Source of the DNA: an uncultured Gammaproteobacteria bacterium
Lineage (GTDB): Bacteria; Patescibacteriota; Microgenomatia; Levybacterales; UBA12049
NCBI GenBank assembly: GCA_964521295.1
Contig: CAZFRF010000001.1
Span: 206,146 to 270,145, forward strand
Direction of reading: 5' to 3'
Length of the DNA stretch: 64,000 nt
The notes beneath the pieces were generated by a model that had not been told where the DNA came from, did not search any database, and worked only from the letters and a program-made list of their open reading frames with translations. Positions 876 to 39,253 of the stretch are shown here, piece after piece. Made by a program: the position numbers and the translations under genes. Position 1 is the stretch's first letter, and each line of letters begins with the position of its first letter.

Positions 876-876
876 A

Positions 877-3169: not shown

Positions 3170-3255
3170 AAATGAGGCTATTATGCAATATTATAGGTTA
3201 CTTAGTTTACTAAAGAAGTTAAACTTCCGATTGATAAGTAGATAGAAAGTGTTGT

Positions 3256-3329: not shown

Positions 3330-3386
3330 TTTGGTTTATATTGTTCGTTAAGTATACTATAATACTCGTAGATAGACAATTATCTC

Positions 3387-3461: not shown

Positions 3462-3509
3462 CATTTTCCCACTTGAACAATGATAGTGTTATTACGATAT
3501 AATTATTAA

Positions 3510-4763: not shown

Positions 4764-4769
4764 TTAGAT

Positions 4770-6489: not shown

Positions 6490-6567
6490 AAGTTTAAATA
6501 TAATACGCTCAAATTATACATATTTCAACAGTTTGAATATACTTTGCATTTTTGTTATTCTTTAATT

Positions 6568-6972: not shown

Positions 6973-7011
6973 GTTTGAAAAGATAGTCAATAAAAGATAT
7001 AATACATACTG

Positions 7012-7236
7012 ATGTTAGTCTTAATTATAAACATCCTAGATATTATTGCAGCTATAGCTTTAATTTGCTTAGTTCTTCTACAAATGCAAGGTAGTGGATT
7101 GTCAGGAGCTTTTGGAGGAGCAGGAGAGTTTTATAGAAGCAAAAGAAGTATAGAGAAATTGCTAATTTGGGCTACAATTGTTGTAACCATAATTTTTGGT
7201 ATTACATCTTTGCTTCTTTTAATTCCTCTAAAATAA
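7012..7236 (+). CDS. secG: Preprotein translocase subunit SecG
   Basis: 74 aa with two TM helices and the SecG signature LLQ-x-G-x-G-x-GL-x-AFGG (LLQMQGSGLSGAFGGAG). Confidence 0.7.
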   Translation: MLVLIINILDIIAAIALICLVLLQMQGSGLSGAFGGAGEFYRSKRSIEKLLIWATIVVTIIFGITSLLLLIPLK

Positions 7237-7242
7237 CAAATT

Positions 7243-11621: not shown

Positions 11622-11639
11622 TAATCCTATTATATACGA

Positions 11640-23444: not shown

Positions 23445-23516
23445 TGAGCCGACCGAGATTCGAACTCGGGACCAAGAGCTTAAAAGGCTCCTGCTCTACC
23501 GCTGAGCTATCGGCCC
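23445..23516 (-). tRNA. tRNA-Lys (anticodon TTT)
   Basis: Reverse complement GGGCCGA-TA-GCTCAGCGGTAGAGC-A-GGAGC-CTTTTAA-GCTCT-TGGTC-CCGAGTTCGAATCTCGG-TCGGCTC-A. Anticodon loop CT-TTT-AA. Coordinates +/-2 nt. Confidence 0.85.
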
Positions 23517-23612
23517 ACGTAATTAGCATCATTAATTATACCAATAGCCTTGAGTATTGACAAGCAAATACTAAAAACTATATAACTTACATAAATTGAA
23601 AGGAGGTGAATT

Positions 23613-24272
23613 ATGACAGATATTGGCAGTACAATAGTTACTTCTTTTAACAATGCTTTCTACGCTACTGTAAACTTTATACCAAGATTTTTAACTGGTG
23701 CAATAATTTTAGTAATTGGTTTAATAGTTGGATCACTAGTAAAACAAGCAATTGTTACAGGGTCGAAAACCTTAAAAGTTGAAAGCTATTTAAAAAAATA
23801 TGGAGTTCCAGAATTACAAAGTGAATTTTCTTGGACAAATATCTTAGCTGAAATCGCTAGATGGTTTATTATCGTAGTGTTTTTAGTTCCTACAGCAGAT
23901 GTTTGGGGACTTCCACAAATAATTACAATTTTAAATCAAGTTTTGTTCTATATTCCTAATGTCTTTATAGCAGCTGTAATTGCTTTGGTTGGATTTGTTT
24001 TTGCCAGAATTGCACATGATGTAGTACTTGCATCAGTAAAAGGTGTTGATTCTCAAACAGCCAATACTTTAGCTCAAGTTGTTAGATGGGCAATTGCAAT
24101 TTTTGTAATTCTAGCTGTACTAAATCAATTAGGAGTTGCTTCTGATTTAATCAGAATACTCTTTACTGGTTTCGTAGCAATGATTGCTTTAGCTGGAGGA
24201 ATTGCATTTGGATTCGGTGGACAAGGAGTAGCAAAAGACATATTAGAAGGTATAAGGAAAAAATTGAAATAG
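23613..24272 (+). CDS. Membrane protein (internally duplicated, function unknown)
   Basis: 219 aa with two similar halves, each having TM helices. No catalytic motif recognised. Confidence 0.5.
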   Translation: MTDIGSTIVTSFNNAFYATVNFIPRFLTGAIILVIGLIVGSLVKQAIVTGSKTLKVESYLKKYGVPELQSEFSWTNILAEIARWFIIVVFLVPTADVWGLPQIITILNQVLFYIPNVFIAAVIALVGFVFARIAHDVVLASVKGVDSQTANTLAQVVRWAIAIFVILAVLNQLGVASDLIRILFTGFVAMIALAGGIAFGFGGQGVAKDILEGIRKKLK

Positions 24273-24304
24273 AATTTGCCTTTGTGCCTACTTTTACGGT
24301 ATAA

Positions 24305-25852
24305 TTATGTTATGCCGCCATCGTCTAGTGGCCTAGGACACCTGGTTTTCAGCCAGGGAATCAGGGGTTCGACTCCCCTTGGCGGTACTAAAGTTGTTTT
24401 TTCTACGTTGGCATTAGCGATTAGCTTGAAAGGAAGGCCTAACTCCTCGGTTCCAATATCATCATCTTTATAATAAATACCTTTTGGAAACAAAAGCTGT
24501 TGGAATCTTAACTTTTGATCAAAGGGTGCATCTAGCCATATTGTAGATACCTTCTTAAATAACTCTTCAGAAAGACTCATTAAATAGTCTATGTCTGCGT
24601 CAATGTTCTTAATTTCGTCTCTTTCCACTTCGTTGGTGACAATATTAGCTTTGACGATTTCCATTTGTTCTTTAAAATCATCATCTGAGATTATTCCTTT
24701 TAAATTCTTTTCAAGCAACATTTGCCTTCGAATGTTAAGATTATGTAGGCCTTTATCTATTCTTGCTTTATCTACAAGTACTGACTGTTGTTTCATTTTC
24801 CAAACATCTGTCAATATTTCCTTAAAAAGTTTAATAAATGCTTCATTAGGTTGTATTTGCTTTAATAAATAAATAAAAGATTCTTCTAGGCGTTCTTTTC
24901 TTACTCGTGTTTCTCCGCAAATGCAATGGTAATAAGCGTATTTGTTTGATCGTCCCGTAGACTTGCTTCCTGTTAAATTCTTACCACATGAAAGACACTT
25001 TGCAATTCCTCTTAATGGAAACTCAGGATTGTTAACTATCCTTGGAACTGCTGACACCGATCTTCCCTCACGTACCATCTGAGCCCTCTGAAATAAGTTA
25101 GGTGAGATTATTTTCTCATGTAAGCCTTCTTGCTCATCCCAGTCTTTTACCTTGATTATGCCCATATAAAGCTTGTTCTCTAAAATTTTGGTAACTGTTT
25201 GAGGAGACAATTTATTGTCTTTCTTGGTTCTTACGCCCCATTTATTAAATCTGTCAGTAATTTGTTTTATTGAATAGTTGCCCGAAGCATAAAGCTCAAA
25301 AGCTTGACGAACAAATGTAGCATTTTTTTCATCTATCACCATTCCAGTTGGAGTATTTCTATATCCTAATGGAGGAGCCCATGCCCATAGACCTTGTCTT
25401 ACGCGTTCCTTAAGACCTTCCCGCGTTCTGTCTGCTCGAACATCATTATCGAATTGAGCAACTGCAGCAAACATATTTTCTAAGAATTTTCCAGTCGAAC
25501 TTTCATCAATATTTTCATTCACTGATCTTAGAACAACACCGCATCTTGATAATGCAGCTCTAATGTAATGATGATCGTCCGCTTGCCTTGCAAACCTATC
25601 TATTTTGTGGACTAACACAGCATCTACTTTACCTTTGTTCTTTATGCAATATTCAAGCATTTTGCCAAGCTGAGTTCTATCAGCTGATCTAGCTGATTCT
25701 CCTTGTTCTTCAAATATTTGAAGAACATTCCAGCCCTGCTTTTCAGCATACTCGCTACATAGTTTTCTTTGAGAATCGAGACTATAACCCTGAAGCTGTT
25801 CTTTAGAGCTTACTCGGGTATAGACAACAACATTCATAATACTCTTACTCAT
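24305..25852 (-). CDS. Large serine recombinase (resolvase/invertase-type integrase)
   Basis: N-terminal resolvase domain VVVYTRVSSKEQ...GYSLDSQR with conserved Arg/Asp residues, recombinase domain, zinc ribbon CLSCGKNLTGS...YYHCICG and a coiled-coil tail. The last 28 or so codons are the antisense of tRNA-Glu, so the attachment site is embedded at the gene's 3' end. Confidence 0.85.
   Translation of the reverse strand: MSKSIMNVVVYTRVSSKEQLQGYSLDSQRKLCSEYAEKQGWNVLQIFEEQGESARSADRTQLGKMLEYCIKNKGKVDAVLVHKIDRFARQADDHHYIRAALSRCGVVLRSVNENIDESSTGKFLENMFAAVAQFDNDVRADRTREGLKERVRQGLWAWAPPLGYRNTPTGMVIDEKNATFVRQAFELYASGNYSIKQITDRFNKWGVRTKKDNKLSPQTVTKILENKLYMGIIKVKDWDEQEGLHEKIISPNLFQRAQMVREGRSVSAVPRIVNNPEFPLRGIAKCLSCGKNLTGSKSTGRSNKYAYYHCICGETRVRKERLEESFIYLLKQIQPNEAFIKLFKEILTDVWKMKQQSVLVDKARIDKGLHNLNIRRQMLLEKNLKGIISDDDFKEQMEIVKANIVTNEVERDEIKNIDADIDYLMSLSEELFKKVSTIWLDAPFDQKLRFQQLLFPKGIYYKDDDIGTEELGLPFKLIANANVEKTTLVPPRGVEPLIPWLKTRCPRPLDDGGIT
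24314..24387 (+). tRNA. tRNA-Glu (anticodon TTC); integration target
   Basis: GCCGCCA-TC-GTCTAGTGGCCTAGGAC-A-CCTGG-TTTTCAG-CCAGG-GAATC-AGGGGTTCGACTCCCCT-TGGCGGT-A. Anticodon loop TT-TTC-AG. Coordinates +/-2 nt. Confidence 0.85.
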
Positions 25853-26036
25853 AATTATGATTTCTTTTTGAGGCTAAATCAATACCTGTAGTTGTGTCTT
25901 TGGAACCAACGATATCTGAAATAACTCCAGCTAATTTAGTAAAGATATTTATCAATTCCTCAATTTCTCTATCGGTATACTTATCTGAAGATTTACCTAA
26001 TATTTTCCTTGCCTTCTTAACAGAAAATGGCTCCAT
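25845..26036 (-). CDS. Small hypothetical protein upstream of the recombinase (possible directionality factor or regulator)
   Basis: 63-aa ORF overlapping the recombinase start by 8 nt. No recognisable motif. Confidence 0.3.
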   Translation of the reverse strand: MEPFSVKKARKILGKSSDKYTDREIEELINIFTKLAGVISDIVGSKDTTTGIDLASKRNHNYE

Positions 26037-26121
26037 AATATTAGTATGTGGGAATATGTGGCCAAGTGTAAGATTAGGGCACTTTTTGTACTCAATTTAC
26101 AAGACAATTACGCTCAGAGGA

Positions 26122-26331
26122 TTAGATCAGATCTCTTGCTTTAGCTCCTAAAGCTTTTGCAATTTTGTTGAGAGAGTCTATACTTGGTCTACGCTGGCCC
26201 GTCTCTAATAAGCCAATGAAGGTTGTACTTAACCTTACTTTATCAGCTAATTCCTCTTGTGTTAATCCTACTTGCTTTCTCATTCTTTTTAAACGATTAG
26301 CAAAAGCTTTGTCCTTATTGGTTATTGCCAT
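26122..26331 (-). CDS. XRE-family (Cro/CI-type) HTH regulator
   Basis: 69 aa. LKRMRKQVGLTQEELADKVRLSTTFIGLLETGQRRPSIDSLNKIAKAL matches the HTH_XRE core. Divergent from two small cargo genes. Confidence 0.8.
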   Translation of the reverse strand: MAITNKDKAFANRLKRMRKQVGLTQEELADKVRLSTTFIGLLETGQRRPSIDSLNKIAKALGAKARDLI

Positions 26332-26424
26332 ATGCTAAGGCTAGCAAGAATTGGCAAATAAGTTTATTAACTACAAGTACAGATTTCATAGCTAAAACTA
26401 TTGACATTTTACTAACTGACAGTT

Positions 26425-26790
26425 ATGCTCATTCCGATGGAGAAAAATAAAAAAAATTGGTTATCCTCCTTGCTAATAGTAATTTTTGGGCCTTTTGGCA
26501 TGTTCTTTTGGGGTTTACGAGTAGGATTAGCTTCTCTAGTAGGAATTGCTGTCTTTATACTAATAACAACTATTTTAAGCTATGGAGTAGATATCAAATA
26601 TCAACTCCTCATAAGGATTGTTTACTTAATCATTCACGTTAAATTATTAAGAATGGATGATCAAGAGACCGAAAACCTAAGACATATAGGAGTCAAAGAG
26701 TTCTTATACCTGTCAAGCATGATTCTTTTAAACTTCCTTTTTTTTGGATTCCTGGGATTTATTGCTATTTCAATATTGAAGAGGTTCTAG
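26425..26790 (+). CDS. Small membrane protein (island cargo)
   Basis: 121 aa with three TM helices. No motif. Confidence 0.4.
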   Translation: MLIPMEKNKKNWLSSLLIVIFGPFGMFFWGLRVGLASLVGIAVFILITTILSYGVDIKYQLLIRIVYLIIHVKLLRMDDQETENLRHIGVKEFLYLSSMILLNFLFFGFLGFIAISILKRF

Positions 26791-27156
26791 ATGAAAAACA
26801 AAATTATAGCTATTTTTGTTTTGACGATTATTGTATTCGCAATAACAGTGTTTGACATTAATCATACAATATCCAAGTTTGAAGCTGAGCAGCTTGTGAA
26901 GTCCCAATCTGAAGTCGCAAAATTAACAGCAGATACTACAATAAACTGGCATGTTGATGCAATTAATAAAGAAGATTATTGGATAGTTCAGGTTTATCAA
27001 GTTGTTCAGTATAAAGATCATCCGGAAAACAATCATGAGTCTACATTTAATTGGTACAAAGTTGATAAAAAATCTGGTCAAATTACCTGCTCTATGTTCT
27101 TATATGATTCAAAAGGTGTATTAAATAAAAATGGGAAAGTAAATAATTGCTACTAG
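26791..27156 (+). CDS. Small secreted/anchored protein (island cargo)
   Basis: 121 aa with an N-terminal signal/anchor and a Cys pair. ATG overlaps the stop of the previous gene. Confidence 0.4.
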   Translation: MKNKIIAIFVLTIIVFAITVFDINHTISKFEAEQLVKSQSEVAKLTADTTINWHVDAINKEDYWIVQVYQVVQYKDHPENNHESTFNWYKVDKKSGQITCSMFLYDSKGVLNKNGKVNNCY

Positions 27157-27325
27157 ATGTCTTCTTTCTAACGACTAGCTTATCGGTTCAAGACACGATC
27201 AGTAATCTTGAAATGAGACGAAGTTCTGACTTTAAAGCTATTTAAATTTGTAAAAATCCCCTCAAACGTCTATAAACTATAAATCCTGCGGTACTAATCT
27301 TGACTACGAAGGTTTTTAAACTCTA

Positions 27326-27360
27326 GCTATGTAATACATTACATGTATTTAATTACACAG
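27326..27360. repeat. Third, more divergent copy of the TGTAAT/ATTACA palindromic motif (ctatGTAATACATTACATGtatttaattacacag)
   Basis: TGTAAT-AC-ATTACA at 27330-27343, followed by an inverted gtgtaatt half-site. Confidence 0.45.
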
Positions 27361-27475
27361 CTAATAATTTTGCAATTAAATAACTTTACTATCTTATAAT
27401 ATCATACTTTAGCTTCAATTGTAAGAAATCTGCGCCAGTAAATAGCTTCTTCTTTACTTTGTTCAAGATACTGCT

Positions 27476-27520
27476 GGGACTCCCAAGCGTTTTTAATGTG
27501 TAATCATTACATGTTTTGAT
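27476..27520. repeat. Imperfect direct repeat copy A (gggactcccaagcg...ttaatGTGTAATCATTACATGtttt) containing the palindrome TGTAAT-C-ATTACA
   Basis: Compared by eye with copy B at 30913-30960. Both share gactcc, tttta and GTGTAATC[A/G]TTACAT in the same order. The palindrome lies at 27499-27511. Confidence 0.6.
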
Positions 27521-27571
27521 GGTATATATTTATGTCAATACAATCATGAAATGGGATCTATCTGCGTAAGA

Positions 27572-28765
27572 CTAATTGAGTGGTGCGTCAGGCTTACTTA
27601 TGTTCTTAATTAATTCTACAAGCTTTGCTGCTTTATTATCAAAATATTCTTTATAGAATTGGCTTGAATTCATTTGAATAATTTCAATCTTCTCTGGACT
27701 TATTTGCTTAACGTTATAGATTTTGCTACTTATATCTGACTCTTGTATTCTTTTTATTTTATCAGCAATTTTCTTTGATATTTCTTTAGGATTTTTTTCA
27801 CCCTTAAATGGAGAAACAATTATTAGTTTTTTTTCAGGATATTTATTTACAGATTCAATAATTAAATTATTGATATATGTGTCAAAAAAGCTATATCCGA
27901 TTATAATAAAGAAATCTCTTTCATCAAGAATTTCTTTGAATCGAAAGGTCAAGCTAAGAAAAGGGTCGACAGATAACATTTTCGCCTCTTGTCCAAATAT
28001 TAGAAGTGGAATAAATGAGGTGAGGGGTAATTTATCTTCTTTTCTAACTTGTCCCTTCATTATTTCATCGTCAACACCTGCTATAGATTTTGTCCAGTTT
28101 AAAGAACCGTGTATTTTGTAGTAATTCATCCTATATTTTTCAACCTGATCTTGGCTATCAAACGCATTTTGCCAATCTCCTGATTGAAAACCATCGTTCA
28201 ATACAGTTTCAGCTGATGTGTTAAAGAATTTTTCAAAAACAAGATCATAGTTTATTGTAAAAAAATCCAGAACAAATGGTTTATCGCTAGTATCAGTAAG
28301 AAATTGTTTAACTGGAGTAAGTAACGTCTGTGATTTGGGAGCATCAAAAGATAACCAATTTGGTAGATATGTATATTCAATCTTAGAAAGCAAAGTCTTA
28401 AAAACATCTTGTTCCCTATACTCAAATTTTAATATCTTTTCACTCCAATTGCCTACCATCGGATGAGGAATTATATAGTCACGATTGACAATTTTTCTTA
28501 AAAGAAATACAAATTCTTCGATATTTGGAATATAATCCGTTTGCTTTGAAGCAATATTTTTCCAACTTTTTTGGTATTCAAGACAAGAAATAATAAATCT
28601 AAAAATTTCAACTTCATCCTTATTTCCTTCATGCTCTATTATTCGACCAAGGTCATCAATCATCATTTTTGAAGTTTTACAACCAGCCTCAACCGTAGCG
28701 CCCGCTCCTGTAAAAAAAACTACCTTTTTTGATAATTCTTCAAGTGTCATGCTTAAATAAACCAA
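27572..28765 (-). CDS. Sir2-family (DHS-like NAD-binding) effector protein, pAgo-associated
   Basis: N-terminal VVFFTGAGATVEAG (cf. Sir2 GAGIS-x-SGIP NAD-binding loop). TINYDLVFE (cf. TQNIDxL). YYKIHGSLNW (cf. the catalytic-His motif LHGSxxW of Sir2 NADase domains in ThsA/DSR/SPARSA). The start overlaps the pAgo stop by 13 nt. About 150 aa of C-terminal extension of unknown fold. Confidence 0.7.
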   Translation of the reverse strand: MVYLSMTLEELSKKVVFFTGAGATVEAGCKTSKMMIDDLGRIIEHEGNKDEVEIFRFIISCLEYQKSWKNIASKQTDYIPNIEEFVFLLRKIVNRDYIIPHPMVGNWSEKILKFEYREQDVFKTLLSKIEYTYLPNWLSFDAPKSQTLLTPVKQFLTDTSDKPFVLDFFTINYDLVFEKFFNTSAETVLNDGFQSGDWQNAFDSQDQVEKYRMNYYKIHGSLNWTKSIAGVDDEIMKGQVRKEDKLPLTSFIPLLIFGQEAKMLSVDPFLSLTFRFKEILDERDFFIIIGYSFFDTYINNLIIESVNKYPEKKLIIVSPFKGEKNPKEISKKIADKIKRIQESDISSKIYNVKQISPEKIEIIQMNSSQFYKEYFDNKAAKLVELIKNISKPDAPLN

Positions 28766-30807
28766 AGTGTCTTTTTGGCAATCTTCGAGTTTGGTAATCC
28801 ATTTGAGAAGTAATAAGCCTTTTCGGACAACTCTTTGGCATATTCAATTGTGACTGGGACAGCTTTCTGTTTAATGGATCTCCAATACAACCTTGAAAAT
28901 TCATATACTTGGTCTAATAGGTCTATAACTTCATTTTTGTCCCTAATGTCTACGCCGTTATGAGCAGTTATAGTGATTTTTACTGGGTATTTATCATCAC
29001 CTTTATAAGTTGAGATATCGTCACTGTGTCTTTCATTATTGAATAAAATAAATACACTTTTTTTAAGTTCGACAACGGTTCCGCTAACTGGGATTTTACC
29101 AGGATAACTTTTATCAAAGCATATGTAATCTTTTGCTCTAGTATCATTTATATTAAGGACAGTATATGGAATATTTAAGTTGAGATTTTTAAATACTTCC
29201 GCTAAAGTTGCTGACTCTTTGTTTCCCCACTCTTTAAAATAATGAATTATTAATTTTTGAGGCTCTCCGTTTTCTACTATGTGATTATTAATGGCGTCTT
29301 CAAGGCTTTTTTTTAAATTTTCTTGTGTATACTCAAAGCAACTTAAATCCTTAAAAACTCCACTATTATTAAAACATACAGTATTCCCAATGTACCTAGT
29401 TCCACCAGGAGATTTAATAATTTTTTCTCCAAAACCAACCAACAAACAGTTACCTAAGTCTCTCTTTAATTTCCAAGGTATTCCTCCAACTTTAGCTAAA
29501 ATTGCAATCGCCATATTAGGAAGATAAAAATGTATAGCTTGTGATTTAAGCTTTATAGATTCAATAACCTGAGAAGTAATGTTTAAATTTAAAAGCGATT
29601 CTTTTATTTTAAAATAAATTAATTTTTCATCCTCATTTGCTGTTTCTTCGCTAAAAGGGGATATATACAATGCAACATACTTTCTTTGCGAATCAAGTGT
29701 TAAACTTTTTAAGCGTTCTTCTATCTGTTCTAGGGCAGTGTTTGAGCTTTCGAAACTAATAGAATTCTCTATATCCAAGTCGAATGGGATTTTTGAAAAA
29801 CTTTCCAATCCAGGAAAATGTCTATAACCATATTTGAAATATTTATATAGACTATTAGCTATATCTTTATCCGTTTTTGAATAAATAAATATAAACTTAA
29901 CTTTATCTACATCTTCGGGTACAAAATACGGTCCGTAATTTGAGAAACCACGATATGGGTCATACTCAGTTTTTCCTTCCCCGAATTCTAGCAAATTTTT
30001 TTCTCTAGGAATTTCGATTATTTCGCTTTCTTTAAGCTCTCTTAGTCCAGATGCTAGAACCTGAACTCCCCGTGCTATATCTTTTCCTTTTAAGTGTGAT
30101 TCATAAAAAGTTGTTATTAAGCTGTAATGATTTATAAAAGAAAAGTCTTTTGACGATGCAAATGATAATCTAAGATTAGAATCAATTTCTCTATTGAGTA
30201 ATGGCTTGCCGGTTTTGATTATCTCCTCGTCTAAAAATTTTGTTCTGAAAATCTCCTTGTCTAGTAAAACTTTCTTAACAGTTTGATGTTCTAAATTTAG
30301 TTCTGAGATAGATTGTTTATGTATTTTGGAATTTTGACTTCCTAATCCAATCGTTAAGTAGTATTTGTCAAACTGTTTATCAATTTTTAAATTCCATACG
30401 TTATACTCATAATAATCGTCTGTTGTTGCTGGCTGCTTTTTTTCCCAAATCTCCAGATCATCAATGAAATTGGATGCTGTAATAAATTCTTTATGCTGGA
30501 AATAGGATTTAAATTTTGAGGAGAGATACAATGGAATAAAAAATGGTTCTTTTTCAAGATTAAATGTAAATTGCTTCAATTCATTGTCTGCCTCCTCTTT
30601 TTCAAATTTTATACTTACGTGACTATTCTGATGAGCAATCGAGTTTAAATAAGATGCAAAATCGGTACTAGTGTTATTTAGGTTTCGTAGGAGATAATCT
30701 ATGGTAAAAACACGTGAGAATTTGTAGTCTTTTCCCGGCTTAAAGAATATATCTATCGAATCTTTTGGATACGTTATTAATACTTGATTAATTAGTAATT
30801 GCGACAT
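28753..30807 (-). CDS. Prokaryotic Argonaute (pAgo) with catalytically inactive PIWI domain
   Basis: C-terminal PIWI block AIAILAKVGGIPWKLKRDLGNCLLVGFGEK contains the hallmark KxGGxPW/NW motif. The position of the first catalytic Asp (GxDVxH) is occupied by GFGEK, and no RDG motif follows (LIIHYFKEWG). The MID-like region is YVALYISPFSEE...KLIYFKIKES. The roughly 370-aa N-terminal region fits either N/L1/PAZ*-L2 or a fused APAZ. Confidence 0.72.
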   Translation of the reverse strand: MSQLLINQVLITYPKDSIDIFFKPGKDYKFSRVFTIDYLLRNLNNTSTDFASYLNSIAHQNSHVSIKFEKEEADNELKQFTFNLEKEPFFIPLYLSSKFKSYFQHKEFITASNFIDDLEIWEKKQPATTDDYYEYNVWNLKIDKQFDKYYLTIGLGSQNSKIHKQSISELNLEHQTVKKVLLDKEIFRTKFLDEEIIKTGKPLLNREIDSNLRLSFASSKDFSFINHYSLITTFYESHLKGKDIARGVQVLASGLRELKESEIIEIPREKNLLEFGEGKTEYDPYRGFSNYGPYFVPEDVDKVKFIFIYSKTDKDIANSLYKYFKYGYRHFPGLESFSKIPFDLDIENSISFESSNTALEQIEERLKSLTLDSQRKYVALYISPFSEETANEDEKLIYFKIKESLLNLNITSQVIESIKLKSQAIHFYLPNMAIAILAKVGGIPWKLKRDLGNCLLVGFGEKIIKSPGGTRYIGNTVCFNNSGVFKDLSCFEYTQENLKKSLEDAINNHIVENGEPQKLIIHYFKEWGNKESATLAEVFKNLNLNIPYTVLNINDTRAKDYICFDKSYPGKIPVSGTVVELKKSVFILFNNERHSDDISTYKGDDKYPVKITITAHNGVDIRDKNEVIDLLDQVYEFSRLYWRSIKQKAVPVTIEYAKELSEKAYYFSNGLPNSKIAKKTLWFI

Positions 30808-30912
30808 ATAAGTAAATTGTAAATATATTTTACTACATTTCTATACGCCTTACATTATACTCTGTTAACATCTAAACACTGGTATTGATTTAATCCGATT
30901 TAAGTAACATTG

Positions 30913-30960
30913 AGACTCCTTGGGGTCTTTTAGCTCATGGTGTGTAATCGTTACATATTT
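30913..30960. repeat. Imperfect direct repeat copy B (gagactccttggggtcttttagctcatgGTGTAATCGTTACATattt) containing the palindrome TGTAA-TCG-TTACA
   Basis: See copy A. Copies A and B bracket the pAgo-Sir2 operon (27572-30807). The gactccttgggg segment resembles the tRNA-Glu 3' end gactccccttggcgg. Confidence 0.6.
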
Positions 30961-31119
30961 AAGAAAGAAAAAAAGAAGCAAAAAAAGAAAGAATATTTTT
31001 AAATTTTATTAAACTAAAGGACTAATAGACAAAGGCTGGTGTGAGGCTAGGTCTAATGATTGTCTGCCATTGCTCAAGGCTGCTGCGTATTTGGTTCCAA
31101 TTCTCTATAATTTGGGGTA

Positions 31120-32451
31120 CTAAATAACTTCTAATCCTTTGCTTTCGTTATGAACATGTTTAACCATTTTTTCTTGATAGACACGCACTCCTTCTTTTTG
31201 TGGCACGCTATATGAACCATATAAAATATTTCCTTTATATATGCTTGTAATACCTTGATAGATTAAGCTAAGTAATCTATTTTCACCAGTAATTTTATAA
31301 TTCGCTCTAACTATATCTGGAAGTTCTTCTAAAACTCTTCCAAGATTAAGTCCTTCAACTGCTCTTTTAACTCCTAACCAAAATGCATCAGCTAAGAATT
31401 CAAAATCAACTCTTGGTCCATCATAAGTCATAGTATCTGCCATTGCTCTTATTGTTGAATCAATGTTTCCCACTTGAGTAGCGATGTGGTGTGGATAGTC
31501 AAACCATGTGTATGGATGATCAAGATACATGCTTTTTCCGACAGCCTCTAAATCAAGTTCTTCACCCATAGTGGAGACATTACGTGCTAAATTTTGCCAA
31601 GCAGGTCCACCAGAACACATTTGAAAACCTTCAGTAATTAAGGGAAGCTCTTGACCAACTACTTTTTGCGAAACAAATCTTAAATAAGAACTTAAATCTG
31701 GCTTAGAGACTCCTTCGGCTTTTGCAAATTGATCAAGAACAAATTCTCTGTAGGGTGGAATTACTAAACGCTGTCTTCTTTCGTACATAGTTACTGAATC
31801 TAGTAATCTAAAGTTACTTTTTGATGCTCTAACTAGAATTACTGGTTTTCCTCTAAAGAACCCGCTTGATCTTAAAACACTTGGAGGAAGATAATCGCCA
31901 TTTAGATCAGGTAGTTGGGTAATTTCATAAATTCCTAAGATTTTTTCAGTATCCAATCCTCTTTCTGTAAAATGATCAACTCCAACTGATTCTTGCATAG
32001 CATCTCTTGCTTCTAGCTCTCCATAGCCATCGTAAAATGGGTATCTTGCCATTGGTTCTCGCATATCCATATAGCCTCTATATGCGACCGAACCATTTCT
32101 AGCAATTGTTGTAGCGCCAACCCCTTTAAAATTAACGACATATTCCTTGCCATCAATTTCTACAGTTTCATCAGCTTCTAATACTCTTCCGCATTCATAT
32201 GGACTTGACATGATTTTAGTTAAAGCCTGTAAGTCAGTAGAAAAACCAGCATACATATCCGGAGTAACAACGACTCTAAGTCCGCCTTCAACTACTGCTC
32301 TAATCTGAGGGTTGTTGGTGACTAGCGGAGACTCATATAGTGCGCTAGTCATAGCCGGCAATGTATATTCAATATTCGCATGGATTCTGTTATTGCCGTA
32401 AACAGCTAGCACTCTTGGATTAGTTGATATTCTTTCTTTACTTCTATTCAT
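31120..32451 (-). CDS. Uncharacterised 443-aa protein, paralog 1 of a tandem pair
   Basis: Long ORF. About 45-50% identical by eye to the adjacent 443-aa ORF, with shared blocks NIEYTLPA, SSP(Y/F)ECGRVLEAD, V(N)xKGVGAT, LVRASKS(N/H)FRLLDSVTMYER, PLIT(E/Q)G, W(Q/K)NLARNVS and GEELDLEAV. Higher GC than surroundings. No family recognised. Confidence 0.6.
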   Translation of the reverse strand: MNRSKERISTNPRVLAVYGNNRIHANIEYTLPAMTSALYESPLVTNNPQIRAVVEGGLRVVVTPDMYAGFSTDLQALTKIMSSPYECGRVLEADETVEIDGKEYVVNFKGVGATTIARNGSVAYRGYMDMREPMARYPFYDGYGELEARDAMQESVGVDHFTERGLDTEKILGIYEITQLPDLNGDYLPPSVLRSSGFFRGKPVILVRASKSNFRLLDSVTMYERRQRLVIPPYREFVLDQFAKAEGVSKPDLSSYLRFVSQKVVGQELPLITEGFQMCSGGPAWQNLARNVSTMGEELDLEAVGKSMYLDHPYTWFDYPHHIATQVGNIDSTIRAMADTMTYDGPRVDFEFLADAFWLGVKRAVEGLNLGRVLEELPDIVRANYKITGENRLLSLIYQGITSIYKGNILYGSYSVPQKEGVRVYQEKMVKHVHNESKGLEVI

Positions 32452-32452
32452 G

Positions 32453-33784
32453 CTATTTAAATAAAGCCTTTTTCTCTTTGGCTATCTGATCAACCATTGT
32501 TTTTCTATATATCCAACCGCCTTCTGGTGGTGGAGTTCTATATGTATCTGTAAATACCATATGAATATATGCATACTCAATGGCATCAAAAATTCCTTTA
32601 AAAAGTGAATCAGGACCTGTAAAATTGAATTGTCTACGTACATTTTGGGTCATTGTTCGTAAAACAGCATGTAAATCCAAATTAGCAAGACTACCTCTAA
32701 GTCCTTCCCAAACCATGAGCGCTAAGCTATCAAAATCTACTTTAGGGCCACCATCAGTAATTGTGTCTGCAAAGCCCCTAAGCGCCTTATCTATATTCAT
32801 TACATGGTTTGTGACATGATCTTTATAATCGAAAGGAACAGATTGTGATAAATAATCTTTATGTGGCTCTACTGCTTCTAAATCAAGTTCTTCACCTAAA
32901 ACTGAAACATTTCTGGCCAAATTTTTCCATTTTGTCTTTCCTGCAGACATTTCATATCCTTGAGTAATTAATGGCACTTCTTGCCTGAACAATTTTTGAG
33001 TCAAATATCTCAAATATGTATCCATATCTCCAGGTTGTCCTTCAGCCTTATGAAATTGTTCTAAGATTAGCTCTCTTAAACCAGGAATATAAAATTGCAT
33101 TTGTCTTTCATACATAGTTACTGAATCAAGTAGCCTAAAATGACTCTTTGACGCTCTTACTAAAAGAGTAGGTTCTGTAGAAAGTCTATTTTCTTGTTTT
33201 AATACTGCTGGAGAAGTATATTCACCATCTACTCCTGGCATTCTCAGGATTCTATAGATTCCCAAAACTTTTTCTGTATCAATACCTTGCGCTCTTAAGT
33301 CAATTGCATTATCTCGTTCAGACTGTGCATAACGAGCATCTAGTTCGCCAAAACCATGATAAAAAGGATAGACTGCTAAACGATTAAGTACAGCAGTATT
33401 ATTTTCAAAAGCTATTTCACCGTTTCTAAAGACTGACGTTGCGCCAACCCCTTTAATATTTACTGTATACTCGACTCCGTCAATCATGACTGTTGGATCT
33501 GCCTCTAAAACTCTTCCGCATTCAAAAGGACTAGACATAACTGTAACGTCTGCCCTAGCTGCTGGAAGTAATCTAAAATATGTTTGAGGTAAGATTATTA
33601 CTCTTAAATTATCATGGACAACCCTTCTTACATTCGGATCATCAGTTACAGTAAAGGATTCATATTGAGTAACTGTGGTTGCGGGTAATGTATATTCAAT
33701 ATTTGGCACCGTTGATGGACCATATACTCTTGCGATACGGGGATTAGTTGTAATTAATGGTAAAAACTCTTTTGGTTGAGCCAT
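32453..33784 (-). CDS. Uncharacterised 443-aa protein, paralog 2 of a tandem pair
   Basis: See paralog 1. The stop of paralog 2 is 1 nt from the start of paralog 1. Confidence 0.6.
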   Translation of the reverse strand: MAQPKEFLPLITTNPRIARVYGPSTVPNIEYTLPATTVTQYESFTVTDDPNVRRVVHDNLRVIILPQTYFRLLPAARADVTVMSSPFECGRVLEADPTVMIDGVEYTVNIKGVGATSVFRNGEIAFENNTAVLNRLAVYPFYHGFGELDARYAQSERDNAIDLRAQGIDTEKVLGIYRILRMPGVDGEYTSPAVLKQENRLSTEPTLLVRASKSHFRLLDSVTMYERQMQFYIPGLRELILEQFHKAEGQPGDMDTYLRYLTQKLFRQEVPLITQGYEMSAGKTKWKNLARNVSVLGEELDLEAVEPHKDYLSQSVPFDYKDHVTNHVMNIDKALRGFADTITDGGPKVDFDSLALMVWEGLRGSLANLDLHAVLRTMTQNVRRQFNFTGPDSLFKGIFDAIEYAYIHMVFTDTYRTPPPEGGWIYRKTMVDQIAKEKKALFK

Positions 33785-33841
33785 AAGTTCGATATTATAG
33801 GATAATTTAAGCGCATGAGCAAGTTATGCTATCATTAATTT

Positions 33842-34579
33842 ATGAGCGAAGCTAGAAATGATGTTCAACTTATTCAAAGAGCCATTCGTACAGCCCATGA
33901 AATAAAGCGTGCAAAGCAGGGGTATGAACCTGATCATATGTGGGGACAAAATGGTAATGGCTACAAAATTTATGAACACTCATTTAAACCTGTTTTGCAA
34001 GGTGAAACATTACCAAGTCTTATTGCCGGAAACCCTAATCCTGTTGTAGTAGATTTAATGGGGCCTAGTACAATGCTATACACCCTATTCAAGACTTTAC
34101 CACCTGAAGTACATCCAACTGGTTTTTCGCTTGCATTAACAGATTTAAGAAGAAATCCAAAATCCATCGACAAAGATACTGAACTAAATATTACCCATGT
34201 CGTAGGAGATATTCATGCTAAGGATACATGGCAAGCTTTGACACATGCAATGGAACAAAAACTTGGCGATAAAAAAGCAGATTTAGTTGTTTCAAGGGCT
34301 TTGGGTGGACTTTCGCAAATTGCAGTAGATGATGATATGCATGCAATAATAATGGATAAAATCTGGAAAATTACAGCTGATGGAGGTGTAATTATCTTAC
34401 AATTGCCACATACGTACTCTCCTCACACTAAATTTGAAGATAAAGCATTACGATTATTAGCTGATTTACGTGAACAAGGTGCAGAAACTAGATTTGATAA
34501 TCAAGGATCTTTTCCCTTGGTTTATGTTAGAAAACCACTAAATTCTTCTAATAATTTAAATTTTCCCTCCGGTAGTTAA
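33842..34579 (+). CDS. Hypothetical 245-aa protein (possibly Rossmann-like/methyltransferase-like)
   Basis: Divergent from the paralog pair. VVVDLMGPST ... LALTDL ... ADLVVSRALGGL is reminiscent of class I SAM-MTase motifs I, post-I and II, but the match is weak. Confidence 0.4.
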   Translation: MSEARNDVQLIQRAIRTAHEIKRAKQGYEPDHMWGQNGNGYKIYEHSFKPVLQGETLPSLIAGNPNPVVVDLMGPSTMLYTLFKTLPPEVHPTGFSLALTDLRRNPKSIDKDTELNITHVVGDIHAKDTWQALTHAMEQKLGDKKADLVVSRALGGLSQIAVDDDMHAIIMDKIWKITADGGVIILQLPHTYSPHTKFEDKALRLLADLREQGAETRFDNQGSFPLVYVRKPLNSSNNLNFPSGS

Positions 34580-35538
34580 GCGGCCAATTCTTTAAGTGTT
34601 TCTTTAAAAGTACTCAATAGTTTATCGTCATAAATTGAAACAAAAATTATTTCTTTTTTAGCTTTTTTAAATATTTTCTGAATATTTTCCATTTGTTTTT
34701 TATCTAAATTATCAGCTTTTGTAATCGCAATTAATTCATTTTTAGATAATAAATCTGGATTATAATCTTCTAATTCTTTTCTAATAACTTCATAATCGGA
34801 AATAAAATTAGCTGATGCTGAATCTATACAATGAACAATTATTTTAGTTCTCTCAATGTGTTTTAGAAATTTAATGCCTAAGCCTTTACCAGTTGACGCG
34901 CCTTCAATAAGACCAGGGATATCAGCCAGGATTAAGTTGTCCATTGCACCCAGGTTGGGCTCTAAAGTTGTAAATGGGTAATTGCCAATCTTGGGATGCG
35001 CATTAGTTAAAACTTCAAGTAAACTACTCTTGCCTGCATTAGGAAAACCAATCAAACCAATATCGGCAATAAGTTTAAGTTCTAGTTTTAATTCTTTTTC
35101 TTCTCCTGGTTCACCTAGTTCTCTATATTTAGGAGCTTGATTGGTTGCAGATTTAAATTCATTATTGCCTCTTCCACCTTTTCCGCCTGTAGCAACTAAC
35201 ATTGGAGTATCAGTGTCTCTAATTTCAAATTTAATACCCGTAGATAAATCTGTGACCACTGTACCAATCGGTAAATATATTGTCGTATGCTTACCATTTC
35301 TTCCGAAAAGAATTTGTTTTCCTCCTTTTACTCCATCCTCTCCAACAACTTGTTTAGTGTAGGTAAATGTTTGCAAAGCTGAGATATCATTTACGCCTTG
35401 AAAATATACATTTCCACCATTACCACCATTACCGCCATCGGGACCACCACGAGCAGTTTGAGCGTTTCTTTTAAAGGAAGCAGAACCATTACCGCCAGTT
35501 CCAGCTTTAACTTTTATAATAACTTCATCTATTAACAT
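34576..35538 (-). CDS. obg: GTPase Obg (short form without C-terminal extension)
   Basis: N-terminal Obg fold with Gly-rich repeats KAGTGGNGSASF...GGPDGGNGGNGGNVYF. G domain motifs GFPNAGKSS, DIPGLIEGA and TKAD. Confidence 0.9.
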   Translation of the reverse strand: MLIDEVIIKVKAGTGGNGSASFKRNAQTARGGPDGGNGGNGGNVYFQGVNDISALQTFTYTKQVVGEDGVKGGKQILFGRNGKHTTIYLPIGTVVTDLSTGIKFEIRDTDTPMLVATGGKGGRGNNEFKSATNQAPKYRELGEPGEEKELKLELKLIADIGLIGFPNAGKSSLLEVLTNAHPKIGNYPFTTLEPNLGAMDNLILADIPGLIEGASTGKGLGIKFLKHIERTKIIVHCIDSASANFISDYEVIRKELEDYNPDLLSKNELIAITKADNLDKKQMENIQKIFKKAKKEIIFVSIYDDKLLSTFKETLKELAA

Positions 35539-35574
35539 GGTCTTATTTTACCATTTTATGCTAAAATTAGCTTT

Positions 35575-36423
35575 ATGAAACTTATTACAACGTCTGGCTG
35601 GCAAGATTACGAACTTTTAGACAGTGGCAATCAAAAACGTTTAGAAAAATTTGGGAAATATATTATTGTTAAGCCTGACCCACAAGCAATCTGGAAACCT
35701 ATGCTTTCTGAAGATATGTGGCAAAAAGCAGATGCAACTTATTCTGATGAGAAAAAAGAATGGTTACCAAATAAACTACCTAATAAATGGGAGCTTTCAT
35801 ATAAAAAGCTTAAATTTTTTGCAAAACTAACTAGCTTTAAGCATACAGGTATTTTTCCTGAACAAATTCTTAACTGGGAATTTATTGAGAAAAAATTACA
35901 AAATGTAGATCATCAGCCAAATGTATTAAATTTATTTGGTTACACGGGAATTGCAAGTTTAGTGTGCGTAGCAAATGGTGCAAAAGTAACTCATGTAGAT
36001 GGTTCAAAACCCTCCATTGGCTGGGCAAGAGAAAATCAAGCTTTAAGTGGATTGTCAGATAAGCCTATTCGTTGGATATTAGACGACGCAATTGAATTTA
36101 CAGCTAGAGAAGCAAGGCGAGGAAATAAATATGATGCAATCATTATGGATCCCCCAATCTTTGGTCATGGACCAAATGGAGAAACCTGGGATTTTAATAA
36201 AAGTTTCCCAGAGCTTTTGGTTAATTGTAAACAAATTTTAGTAGATAATCCCTTATTTGTCATTGTTAATGCTTATGCAATCTCAGCCTCAAGTTTAATG
36301 CTTAAAAACATGCTAGAAGATTATCTTTTATTAGATGATTCCAAAATTGAATATGGAGAATTAGCAATTCAACAAAAAAATAGCACTCGCTCACTTTCTA
36401 CTGGTATTTTTAGCCGCGCTTAA
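35575..36423 (+). CDS. Class I SAM-dependent RNA methyltransferase (RlmI/RlmK-like catalytic domain)
   Basis: VLNLFGYTGIASLVCVANGAKVTHVDGSK (motif I), DAIEF..., AIIMDPPIFGHGPNGE (DPP motif IV). Confidence 0.7.
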   Translation: MKLITTSGWQDYELLDSGNQKRLEKFGKYIIVKPDPQAIWKPMLSEDMWQKADATYSDEKKEWLPNKLPNKWELSYKKLKFFAKLTSFKHTGIFPEQILNWEFIEKKLQNVDHQPNVLNLFGYTGIASLVCVANGAKVTHVDGSKPSIGWARENQALSGLSDKPIRWILDDAIEFTAREARRGNKYDAIIMDPPIFGHGPNGETWDFNKSFPELLVNCKQILVDNPLFVIVNAYAISASSLMLKNMLEDYLLLDDSKIEYGELAIQQKNSTRSLSTGIFSRA

Positions 36424-36446
36424 TTTGGTGTAAAATAGTAAAACAC

Positions 36447-37592
36447 ATGAAAAAAATTATTTTCCTAGTCATCATTTCAATTCTATTTTTCTTAGTGTTT
36501 CCTTTAAAAACAAACGCTATATATGATCCCACAGCTTCAGCAAACAACAAATTTGGCATTCATATTCTTTTCCCTGAGGAAATTGATCAAGCAGCAAATT
36601 TAATTAATTCAAGCGGTGGAGACTGGGGATATGTAACTGTACCAATTAGAGATTCAGATAGGGATTTAATTAAGTGGCAAAAATTTATGGATGATTGTAG
36701 AAAATTTCATGTCATTCCCCTTTTAAGAATAGCAACCGATGGAGATTATTTTGTCAAAGGTTCTTGGACCATACCTAGTAATCTATATGTTATAGATTTT
36801 GCTAATTTTTTGGATTCTTTAAATTGGCCTACTAAAAATAGATATGTAATCATTTTTAATGAAACTAATAGAGGTGACGAATGGGGTGGGTCTCCTGATG
36901 CTGCAGCTTATGCCAAAATTTTAGATTTTTCAATTGATGCCTTCAAGAAAAGAAGTGATAAATTCTTCATCATTATGGGTGGACTTGATAATGCTTCAAT
37001 TAATATCCCTGGAACATCAGTTTATCAACTTACCTATCTTCAACAAATGGAAGATGCAGTTCCAGGTCTATTTAAAAAATTAGATGGATTATCTATTCAT
37101 GCGTATCCAAATCCAGCTTTTTCTACAGCCCCAAACTATACAGGAACTAACGGTATTTCTTCATTTAAATTTGAACAAAATTTAGTAAAAGAGTTTAGTG
37201 GAAAAACCTTGCCAGTATTTATTACAGAGACTGGTTGGACATCAACCAAAATCGATATTCCTACACAAATTGAATATTATAAAGAAGCTTTTAAGAATGT
37301 TTGGAATGATAAAACAATTATTGCAGTTACACCTTTTTTACTCCATGCAGAAACTGATCCTTTTAGACAGTTTTCTTTCATTTTAGATAATCACCAAACT
37401 GACTTATATAAAGGTTATCAAGGCATCCCCAAAACCAAAGGTTCACCGCAAATTGAACCTGAAACGATTCAAACTACTGCTAAAAGTGTGGTATTAAGAA
37501 CGAGATATTTTACCTCTGAATTTAGCAAAAATATTGCTAATATGTTTAACCCTCAAGCCAGAAGCTTCATGCGCTGGCTATTTAACTTTTAG
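36447..37592 (+). CDS. Secreted glycoside hydrolase, clan GH-A (GH5-like TIM barrel)
   Basis: Signal peptide. Acid/base NE motif IIFNETNRGDEW. Nucleophile motif PVFITETGWTS. A His in DGLSIHAYP between the two. Confidence 0.6.
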   Translation: MKKIIFLVIISILFFLVFPLKTNAIYDPTASANNKFGIHILFPEEIDQAANLINSSGGDWGYVTVPIRDSDRDLIKWQKFMDDCRKFHVIPLLRIATDGDYFVKGSWTIPSNLYVIDFANFLDSLNWPTKNRYVIIFNETNRGDEWGGSPDAAAYAKILDFSIDAFKKRSDKFFIIMGGLDNASINIPGTSVYQLTYLQQMEDAVPGLFKKLDGLSIHAYPNPAFSTAPNYTGTNGISSFKFEQNLVKEFSGKTLPVFITETGWTSTKIDIPTQIEYYKEAFKNVWNDKTIIAVTPFLLHAETDPFRQFSFILDNHQTDLYKGYQGIPKTKGSPQIEPETIQTTAKSVVLRTRYFTSEFSKNIANMFNPQARSFMRWLFNF

Positions 37593-37617
37593 GCTTGTGG
37601 TATAATTTTTTGATCTT

Positions 37618-38139
37618 ATGAATAGTGATCTAACAGATGAAATTTTCCAAAGTTTTACTCATGGAAATTTAAACATCAAAGAAATAATTCAAAAAATAAA
37701 AAGCTTTTTAGAAGAAGATCCTAATGCTGAATACAGCCTAGTAATAGGAACAGATTCACATGAAAAAAATGTTAGTCAACGTCAAATTGGCAGCACTATT
37801 AACTTAGTTACAGCAATACTGATTCACCGAAAAGGCTTTGGAGGAAAGTACTTTTGGCGAAGACAAGAGCAAAAAAACATACACTCTTTAAGAGAAAAAA
37901 TCTATGCTGAAACTATGGTTTCTCTAAGTTTTGCCTCAATTTTTGTACCTTTATTTAAAACAACTTTAAACGGTAAAGCTCCAAATTATAATCTTGAAAT
38001 CCATGTCGACGTTGGTGAACATGGAGAAACTAGGAATATGATTAAAGAAGTTGTTGGCATGGTTACAGGTAATGGTTATGTTGCCAAAACCAAACCCAAT
38101 GCCTATGCCGCCAGTTACGTAGCTGATAAGCACACATAA
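37618..38139 (+). CDS. DUF458/YkuK-like RNase H-fold protein
   Basis: LVIGTDSH...NLVTAILIHRKGFGGKYFWRR matches the YkuK family pattern. Assignment by recall. Confidence 0.45.
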   Translation: MNSDLTDEIFQSFTHGNLNIKEIIQKIKSFLEEDPNAEYSLVIGTDSHEKNVSQRQIGSTINLVTAILIHRKGFGGKYFWRRQEQKNIHSLREKIYAETMVSLSFASIFVPLFKTTLNGKAPNYNLEIHVDVGEHGETRNMIKEVVGMVTGNGYVAKTKPNAYAASYVADKHT

Positions 38140-38570
38140 TGATTAGACTAATTACCAGAAAAAAAGTAGTAAGAAGAATAAAAAAAGCCCAAAAGCTAGA
38201 ATGGGAAGATGCATCTGATGTTGAAGCAAAAATTCAGGAAGTATTACAAAGAGTTCCTATGCCGCATATTCTTCCCCAAAATATTCACGGATATAGAACG
38301 AGTGGTTCTAAATCTAGAGCTTATGCCAGAATTTGGGCAATGCCAAAAATCTTTCAAAGAGCATTAAAACTTGAACCACATTATGTAATTGAAGTTTTAT
38401 CTAAGTATTATGATAATTTGCCAGAAGACGAAAAAGCTAAAGTAATCATTCATGAACTTTTGCATATACCCAACAACTTTTCGGGAGCACTAGTTCCCCA
38501 CCAAACAAAATCTAGAAATTTACACCGGCTTGCGGATAAATTATTTGAAGTATATAAACATAATCAATGA
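38139..38570 (+). CDS. Small putative zinc metallopeptidase-like protein (HExxH)
   Basis: 143 aa. IIHELLHIPNNF contains HELLH. 1-nt overlap with the upstream gene and 4-nt overlap with the downstream gene. Confidence 0.4.
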   Translation: MIRLITRKKVVRRIKKAQKLEWEDASDVEAKIQEVLQRVPMPHILPQNIHGYRTSGSKSRAYARIWAMPKIFQRALKLEPHYVIEVLSKYYDNLPEDEKAKVIIHELLHIPNNFSGALVPHQTKSRNLHRLADKLFEVYKHNQ

Positions 38571-39250: not shown

Positions 39251-39253
39251 TAT

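Follow-up and report, generated by a model that had tools for sequence, protein, structure and literature searches.

The 64,000-nucleotide stretch of DNA analyzed here, hereafter called the window (contig CAZFRF010000001.1, positions 206,146 to 270,145 of the forward strand, assembly GCA_964521295.1, assigned in GTDB to the Patescibacteriota), contains a tRNA-Glu gene overlapped by the 3' end of a large serine recombinase gene and, further downstream, genes for a prokaryotic Argonaute (pAgo) and a SIR2-domain protein. On the basis of comparisons with related loci, the region from approximately position 24386 to 31120 of the window very probably represents one integrated mobile element of ~6.73 kb, mobilized by the serine recombinase (or integrase), the gene of which itself harbors the attachment site of the element (attP).

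The tRNA-Glu(UUC) gene (24314-24388, plus strand), as identified with ARAGORN, is intact, does not encode the CCA end and is identical in sequence to the tRNA-Glu gene of a relative, L084, discussed below; it supplies the B arm of the left junction of the element (attL). From the sequence alone, the integrase open reading frame (ORF) had been read as running antisense through the entire tRNA gene, and this was borne out: the tRNA lies within the 515-amino-acid (aa) ORF at 24305-25852 (minus strand), the stop codon of which is found just past the tRNA 5' end, with the last 27 codons (VPPRGVEPLIPWLKTRCPRPLDDGGIT) being tRNA antisense. This product, which would be the integrated isoform of the enzyme, was assigned by Pfam and by family alignment, with matches to PF00239 (Resolvase; residues 8 to 155, 2e-35) and PF07508 (Recombinase; 3e-17) and a weak match, under the cutoff, to the zinc ribbon PF13408 (9e-4). 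In an alignment of 30 homologues, Y11, R13, V14, and S15 are invariant, as are C286, C289, and C310 of a Cys cluster, with C312 present in at least 90% of the sequences.

At the tRNA 3' end, the 9-nucleotide (nt) attL core GGTACTAAA (24384-24392, plus strand) is identical to the core of the right junction (attR; 31116-31124, plus strand), which is followed by host flank; a direct repeat of the target is thus present at both ends of the element. Just inside the right core lies the P-arm motif GGTTCCAA (31093-31100, plus strand), the minus strand of which gives the Trp-Asn codons of a protein tail described below. The sole GGTTCCAAYT sequence in the window (31093-31102) is positioned 12 nt from a copy of the tRNA end, as it is in 20 sibling attR sites, which share a common design of GGTTCCAA, 12 nt, and a copy of approximately the last 10 nt of the tRNA. 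A composite attR pattern matched the window once, at 31093-31123, and was matched in 0 of 100 shuffled sequences. The suggestion, made from the sequence alone, that a tRNA-end copy at 31112-31125 marks a real end of the element (in our search TGGGGTACTAAA, 31113-31124, plus strand, 2 mismatches) is therefore well founded, being backed by P-arm spacing, tail coding, and the resumption of synteny with L084 at position 31131.

L084 was found via an orthologue of the 443-aa gene flanking the island (66% identity) and resides on a 110-kb contig with the gene order MscS-like gene, tRNA-Glu, 130-aa DUF305 gene, two 444-aa paralogues, 243-aa gene, and Obg. Its positions 1 to 913 (reverse complement) match window positions 23480-24391 at 92.8% identity, and its positions 1357 to 10882 match window positions 31131-40646 at 79% identity, while window positions 24392-31130 have no counterpart there and flanking synteny is kept. 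Since homology ends at 24391 and resumes at 31131, the 6.7 kb between the cores is inserted with respect to the conserved gene order; the core also contains the four alignment columns in which all 21 elements compared here agree. The 443-aa gene itself (31120-32451, minus strand), the first of two paralogues, lies outside the element, has an orthologue in the same syntenic position in L084 and has its stop codon in the core. The two tandem paralogues (31120-33784), without a Pfam, NCBIfam, or PADLOC match, are 66% and 46% identical to the L084 pair (8665-11335), versus 93% DNA identity across the MscS/tRNA region, and appear to be fast-evolving genes beside the integration site. In L084, the DUF305 gene (130 aa, 11379-11771) directly follows tRNA-Glu, and the end of the tRNA is overlapped by the DUF305 stop codon. 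No homologue of this gene was found anywhere in the window; the 3' flank of tRNA-Glu therefore varies between the two genomes independently of the island. A tail search of L084 returned no integrase-tail remnant.

The alignment of attL with attR in the 21 elements showed identity over only approximately the last 9 nt of the tRNA, which does not support the assumption that the element carries the body of the tRNA. The 27 antisense residues are therefore host encoded, residues 1 to 488 being encoded by the element, and they replace a native tail that was left behind at the far end. To reconstruct the attP junction, the left arm of each attR was joined to the right arm of the matching attL. In all 19 loci with an open frame, the window included, the integrase ORF continues across the rebuilt junction into a conserved tail of ~25 to 45 aa with the consensus xWNQIxxWLRxLxxLR, examples being VDQNSVSWNPIISWLRRLDSLRAV..., VSRTFASWNQLDGWLRQVEALRRAA followed by a stop codon and, in the window, VPQIIENWNQIRSSLEQWQTIIRPSLTPAFVY followed by a stop codon. 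The corresponding detached 3' end of the gene (the tail exon; 31022-31123, minus strand) would read LVPQIIENWNQIRSSLEQWQTIIRPSLTPAFVY, again up to a stop codon, after excision. Tail exons are in one frame relative to the tRNA end in 21 of 21 elements, including two with a decayed integrase; the GGTTCCA motif is the Trp-Asn codon pair, and a second Trp and a Leu follow. When a hidden Markov model (HMM) of the tail, built without the window, was run against the six-frame translation of the window, a single match was obtained (minus strand, 31025-31147, E = 7.3e-13), the next one having an E value of 0.13. The tail-exon region is also ~73% identical to the corresponding region of a sibling locus, L085.

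Tails of this type occur uninterrupted in the database proteins P0026, P0037, P0040, P0052, and P0095, and those of P0052 and P0040 closely resemble the rebuilt tails of loci L009 and L008, respectively. The sequence that carries P0026, L089, is 12,166 bp in length, contains no tRNA and holds the junction GGTTCCAATGCAGAATCATTTGGGGTACTAAATTTGTTTTTG, a predicted attP, at the 3' end of the integrase gene. Because it has a 29-nt terminal repeat, this suggests that L089 is a circular molecule, the attP form of a sibling; L085 likewise shows an attP junction, and a further P arm is present where its contig begins. Taken together, the rebuilt tails, the HMM match, the uninterrupted tails, and L089 therefore place attP within the integrase ORF, and, as judged from these sequences, integration swaps ~30 native C-terminal codons for host tRNA antisense. 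For the window element, attP is predicted to read TTTGGTTCCAATTCTCTATAATTTGGGGTACTAAAGTTGTTTTTTC / TTTGGTTCCAATTCTCTATAATTTGGGGTACTAAAGTTGTTTTTTCTACG, and attB, the empty host site, CCCCTTGGCGGTACTAAATAACTTC / CCCCTTGGCGGTACTAAATAACTTCTAATCC. The sequence-only reading of the locus as an integrated serine-recombinase element with an attachment site overlapping the integrase 3' end is thus sustained by the tail exon at attR and by family comparison. As a side observation, three siblings that are free or located elsewhere (L086, L087, and L089) have integrases with the native tail, and their genes include a Y-family polymerase (IMS) and an SRAP peptidase; L089 also has a reverse-transcriptase-like gene, and L086 contains a second large serine recombinase 9 kb away.

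The same arrangement was encountered well beyond this genome. When one genome per species was scanned, 80 homologous loci were obtained, spanning Acidobacteriota, Verrucomicrobiota, Myxococcota, Saccharibacteria/Parcubacteria, and others. In 64 of these, an antisense tRNA gene overlaps the integrase 3' end (Glu in 27 loci, Ala in 21, Lys in 12, and Leu, Asn, Arg, and Tyr in 1 each), and at least 7 of the loci without an overlapping tRNA end at a contig edge. The homologues (34 to 71% identity) keep an ...LGLPFxLI...KTTLVP end, after which they continue into variable GxEP-type tails. Such a tail is the classic translation of an antisense T-arm, and 88 of the 120 best homologues end in one. Exact 11- to 17-nt repeats of the tRNA 3' terminus were found 4.5 to 10 kb beyond the integrase in 9 loci. 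No close relative of the integrase was present in phage and plasmid collections (best identity, ≤30%), and the family is apparently widespread and undescribed. The description of tRNA-Glu as an integration hotspot consequently needs to be divided: it is not shown for this genome, in which occupancy is single, but it does apply to the integrase family. Separately, two siblings contain longer exact fragments of the tRNA 3' end, reaching into the T-arm, shortly beyond attR (17 nt at ~154 nt in L007 and 13 nt at ~124 nt in L004). These outer fragments are not accompanied by a P-arm motif and may date from previous insertions by another type of integrase.

These family data bear directly on the possibility that there is no element at all, i.e., that a recombinase gene merely happens to lie beside a tRNA gene, with its ORF running into the tRNA by chance and an ordinary indel accounting for the difference from the relative. 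It is true that read-through of the whole tRNA is incidental here, as the ORFs of most siblings stop 37 to 40 nt into the tRNA. However, the same integrase/tRNA junction recurs in the 64 loci across phyla, the attR architecture is conserved, the tail can be rebuilt wherever the integrase frame is open, attP is known in a circular form and homology with L084 breaks exactly at both cores. We therefore assign next to no probability to such a coincidence.

The short repeats from which two successive elements had been proposed are, on their own, weak evidence. The tRNA-end 12-mer GGCGGTACTAAA occurs seven times in the window when ≤2 mismatches are allowed, versus 2.7 occurrences expected, and 2 of 100 shuffled sequences reach seven. 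The two tRNA 3'-end copies that had been noted at ~27288 and ~31112 both exist, each with 2 mismatches, but only the latter could be retained, as the right end; the former (TGCGGTACTAAT, 27287-27298, plus strand) has no att features and is not an att site by family criteria. What does stand out at this position is an exact 10-mer, GCGGTACTAA, corresponding to the tRNA-Glu 3' end plus 3 nt, which occurs three times in the window versus 0.03 times expected, at 27288-27297 and, among others, at 50073-50082 (minus strand), inside an unrelated 222-aa ORF; no context shared between the copies was found.

On this basis, a tandem pair could be envisaged, in which the recombinase and regulators (24.4 to 27.3 kb) are followed by an integrase-less pAgo-SIR2 cassette (27.3 to 31.1 kb), with GCGGTACTAA at 27288 as the junction. 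Besides the excess of the 10-mer, the family itself lends this some plausibility: seven loci (L033, L042, L059, L067, L069, L085, and L090) contain 2 to 5 same-orientation tail exons upstream of a single integrase, which fits tandem accretion of elements or integrase-less remnants at one tRNA; second attR sites were found in L033, L059, and L061, and in L085 an attP-like junction lies between different gene sets. A junction in this family, however, consists of P arm, core, and P' arm, and the 27288 site has no GGTTCCAA motif and no tail-HMM match, its antisense reading being VPQDL followed by a stop rather than a WN tail. Nor is there an integrase remnant or similarity to siblings beside it, including to its right. 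Since the third copy of the 10-mer lies in an unrelated gene on the other strand, such copies evidently arise without any element. Finally, true arrays have 2 to 5 tail exons, while the window has one tail exon, the only one completing this integrase, and one P arm, both at 31.1 kb. The division into two successive elements at 27.3 kb, which the sequence-only reading had put forward, is therefore highly improbable, and we retain a single element.

A stronger competitor is the view that this single element is a fixed, domesticated remnant that no longer moves, its integrase being inactive or repurposed and pAgo-SIR2 effectively being a chromosomal gene pair. Exact look-ups of the integrase and the 443-aa neighbor mostly had no database record, and the only copies of this exact element that were found are integrated ones: three short read-assembly contigs encode a protein identical to the 219-aa MscS-like protein of the window (23613-24272) and have a minus-strand gene starting 33 nt past the MscS-like gene, like the window integrase, as compared by gene position. 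A fully host-like composition also agrees with a remnant, as does the precedent of siblings L048 and L055, in which the integrase is decayed and the tail exon retained. Opposed to this are the intactness of the integrase ORF, which keeps all invariant catalytic and Cys residues, of the tail exon (E = 7e-13), and of the conserved 63-aa ORF and helix-turn-helix (HTH) gene described below, as well as the identity of the two cores over 9 nt. We consider a domesticated remnant rather unlikely, and the island may still be mobile.

Several findings nevertheless speak against an intact, split-integrase element as proposed here. A relative with an unoccupied tRNA-Glu, a comparison already suggested from the sequence alone, was indeed found in L084, but there 443 bp with the DUF305 gene take the place of the island, and as L084 is a different species-level genome, the preinsertion sequence is not seen directly. 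The predicted attP of the window element had 0 matches in two metagenome scans and one viral-contig scan, and this element was encountered neither in excised form nor through its precise empty site. Contrary to what might be expected of an island, its composition is not deviant (GC content, 0.322 versus 0.336 for the host; tetranucleotide usage equally or more deviant in 14 of the 58 sliding windows). The excess of the exact 10-mer at 27288 is unexplained. As for the tail, selection on it is modest: synonymous changes are seen in the Leu codon that follows the conserved Trp, and the ratio of nonsynonymous to synonymous substitution rates (dN/dS) is ~0.5, with dS saturated, which makes for weak support. 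Part of the conservation of the tail could, moreover, stem from DNA-binding constraints on the P arm, and the tail helix is predicted at low confidence.

The mechanism that we propose is that the serine recombinase joins the 3' end of a tRNA gene to an attP that is embedded in the recombinase gene itself. In the window, crossover probably would have occurred in the last bases of tRNA-Glu, within the GTAC (24385-24388) of the core GGTACTAAA. The tRNA stays intact, and only its terminal bases (the discriminator and CCA equivalent) would become element derived. The integrase gene is split, its last ~30 codons being detached: what remains beside the tRNA are the catalytic, recombinase, and zinc-ribbon/coiled-coil domains, with the ORF reading on into tRNA antisense, and the native amphipathic helix (NWNQIRSSLEQW...) is stranded at attR. 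Excision would rebuild the full-length gene. By analogy with the LI integrase, the sequence recognized by the enzyme is probably the universal T-loop GGTTCGA in the tRNA and GGTTCCA, 5 bp further out, in the element. In the alignment of 21 attL/attR pairs, the P-arm motif is located approximately 17 to 24 positions from the putative center, set within the four invariant columns, and the T-loop (GGTTCGAC, 24366-24373, plus strand, the putative zinc-ribbon-domain motif of the B arm) is 5 bp closer. The zinc-ribbon-domain motif of the LI integrase is found at positions 16 to 24 in attP and 11 to 19 in attB (PMC3783163); the offset observed here agrees with that rule, the assignment to the same domain being putative. 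Recognition of the T-loop, if real, would explain the spread of the family over at least 10 tRNA species in several phyla.

The AlphaFold2 model of P0026 contains long helices at residues 333 to 380 and 386 to 412, a disordered linker at residues 476 to 489, and a helix at residues 490 to 505, the latter with a predicted local distance difference test (pLDDT) score of ~55; the model carries no contact information. The core is translated as a linker, LV(P/D/S)(Q/L/R), and if disordered as modeled, a linker of this kind would tolerate retargeting between tRNAs. We tentatively raise the possibility, itself somewhat doubtful, of a built-in state switch, in which the full-length integrase, with its helix on a flexible linker, would be encoded by the excised form only, and the integrated form would give an isoform with tRNA-antisense residues instead of the helix. 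If the tail helix acted on the coiled-coil or zinc-ribbon module in the manner of directionality factors, the two isoforms would favor integration or excision to different degrees or would not be equally stable. If so, this would be a serine integrase that "knows" whether it is integrated.

Between the two junctions, the element carries a compact set of genes. A 63-aa ORF overlapping the integrase start (25845-26036, minus strand) is, by position, a candidate directionality factor or regulator; it has no Pfam or PADLOC match but is found at the same position in the closest siblings L004, L006, L007, and L008 (tblastn, 1e-4 to 2e-8). It is followed by a gene for a 69-aa Xre/C-protein-like HTH regulator (26122-26331, minus strand; PF01381, 9e-15; PADLOC Control_protein, 2e-15), with homologues in siblings L004 and L006, and by two genes encoding predicted small membrane proteins of 121 aa each (26425-26790 and 26791-27156, plus strand), cargo with a weak PepSY_TM-like match only. 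The pAgo gene (684 aa; 28753-30807, minus strand) yielded matches to PF02171 (Piwi; 4e-13) and, end to end, to PADLOC pAgo PDLC02385 (4e-160). Upstream of and overlapping by 13 nt (28753-28765) the gene of its predicted effector partner, it forms an operon with the latter, which encodes a 397-aa SIR2-domain protein (27572-28765, minus strand; PF13289, 3e-11; PADLOC Aga_SIR2, 1e-63). That pAgo-SIR2 is mobile cargo, as had been claimed from the sequence alone, is supported by its location inside the element bounds and by the presence of different cargo in the closest siblings. Neither pAgo nor SIR2 was found in any sibling locus; L004 instead carries an OLD-family ATPase-TOPRIM nuclease, and the cargo of L007 includes AbiTii. 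Across 20 siblings, cargo is mixed, with PD-T4-6-like kinases, an AbiEii-like ATPase, a Dam methylase, and a PIN-domain protein, in addition to an extracytoplasmic function (ECF) sigma factor, a MacB/FtsX transporter, and sulfatase genes. The noncoding stretches 27157-27571 and 26037-24424 showed no similarity to sibling elements.

Palindromes of the form TGTAAT-N1-2-ATTACA occur in the window only inside the island, with two perfect copies, versus 0.01 expected, and two imperfect ones. Three lie within 27330-27511 (TGTAATACATTACA at 27330, TGTATTTAATTACA at 27344, and TGTAATCATTACA at 27499), in a noncoding gap of 415 bp that follows the SIR2 gene, and are candidate operators; an imperfect one, TGTAATCGTTACA (30943-30955), lies upstream of the pAgo gene. 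Two of the palindromes are part of a ~45-nt repeat (27477-27520 and 30912-30962) that brackets the pAgo-SIR2 operon. A similar palindrome is present in sibling L007. These palindromes may be operators for the C-protein-like HTH regulator of the island. The same ~45-nt repeat contains the sequences at ~27477 and ~30913 that had been taken for copies of the tRNA T-arm. As tRNA remnants, these candidates were rejected because counts are at chance level (22 matches versus 19.6 expected for a 12-mer with ≤3 mismatches), the 27477 sequence not even being among the matches. On the minus strand, the host 443-aa gene is followed by the tail exon and then by the pAgo-SIR2 operon, and transcription could therefore enter the cargo by read-through from the host gene.

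If the proposed reading is correct, the Argonaute-SIR2 system of a small, low-GC genome, located on an NCBI contig of ~0.94 Mb, would be recently mobile cargo with exact boundaries, carried by a family that occupies the tRNA 3'-end niche, thought to be almost wholly the territory of tyrosine integrases. For dozens of loci, the sequence by itself suffices to predict the attP, attB, attL, and attR sites, and the tail swap would amount to a natural test of the effect of the C-terminal region on directionality. Gene callers should not present the tRNA-antisense tail as the real C terminus of the integrase. The sibling elements, as compact (4.5 to 10 kb) carriers of defense genes (OLD-family nuclease, AbiTii, and kinases), should be useful for defense-island surveys, and integrases that land in conserved tRNA genes are possible engineering tools.

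How does this element compare with known systems? Its cargo resembles pAgo-SIR2 defense systems in combining a Piwi-domain protein that matches PDLC02385 end to end with an Aga_SIR2 partner, but in the window the order is pAgo then SIR2, and the pAgo, at 684 aa, exceeds the length of the short pAgos in those SIR2-APAZ systems that have been studied most. With serine integrases such as those of phiC31, Bxb1, A118/LI, SPbeta (SprA), and SCCmec (Ccr), the window enzyme shares the resolvase, recombinase, and zinc-ribbon domains with a long coiled coil, a short shared core, a distal motif that is 5 bp further out in attP than in attB (as in LI), and a small adjacent ORF that by position is a candidate directionality factor. 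It differs in having ≤30% identity to the integrases of phage and plasmid collections, in targeting tRNA 3' ends, and in that attP lies inside the integrase ORF, such that integration alters the C terminus of the protein. The overlap with the tRNA had been called the usual signature of such integration; in the literature, tRNA targeting by serine integrases is in fact rare and had been seen only computationally, with 14 of 297 serine-integrase islands located at t(m)RNA genes and such use described as unreported and in need of proof (Mageeney et al. 2020, PMC7192596). A limited literature search yielded no report of a serine integrase whose gene is divided by the attP of the element, nor of such elements in Patescibacteria.

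Tyrosine-integrase tRNA islands (Islander-type and P4-like) are similar in that the integrase lies by an intact tRNA, with a displaced copy of the tRNA 3' end at the far boundary, in their variable and often defensive cargo, and in the formation of tandem arrays at one tRNA. They typically share far longer segments with the tRNA. Here, the enzyme is a serine recombinase and the repeat measures only ~9 to 17 nt, because crossover would take place at the very end of the acceptor stem. The tycheposons of Prochlorococcus, compared here by description only, likewise are small cargo-carrying elements at tRNA genes, and a minority of them (27 of 937) have a large serine recombinase gene (bioRxiv 10.1101/2020.12.28.424599); they differ in mostly having tyrosine recombinases together with replication modules, and no split integrase has been described for them.

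The closest parallels to the split gene come from systems in which integration divides a gene of the element, such that the integrated and free forms encode different proteins. Broussard et al. reportedly described, in 2013, integration-dependent immunity in mycobacteriophages, in which attP is said to lie inside the repressor gene. As these phages and SSV1-type viruses use tyrosine recombinases, their likeness to the window integrase is one of analogy only. In SSV-type tyrosine integrases, attP is located inside the int gene (PMC8371274). SSV1 integration detaches the N-terminal part of the integrase, which is thought to be disabling, whereas the family described here exchanges only a ~30-residue tail past the DNA-binding domains.

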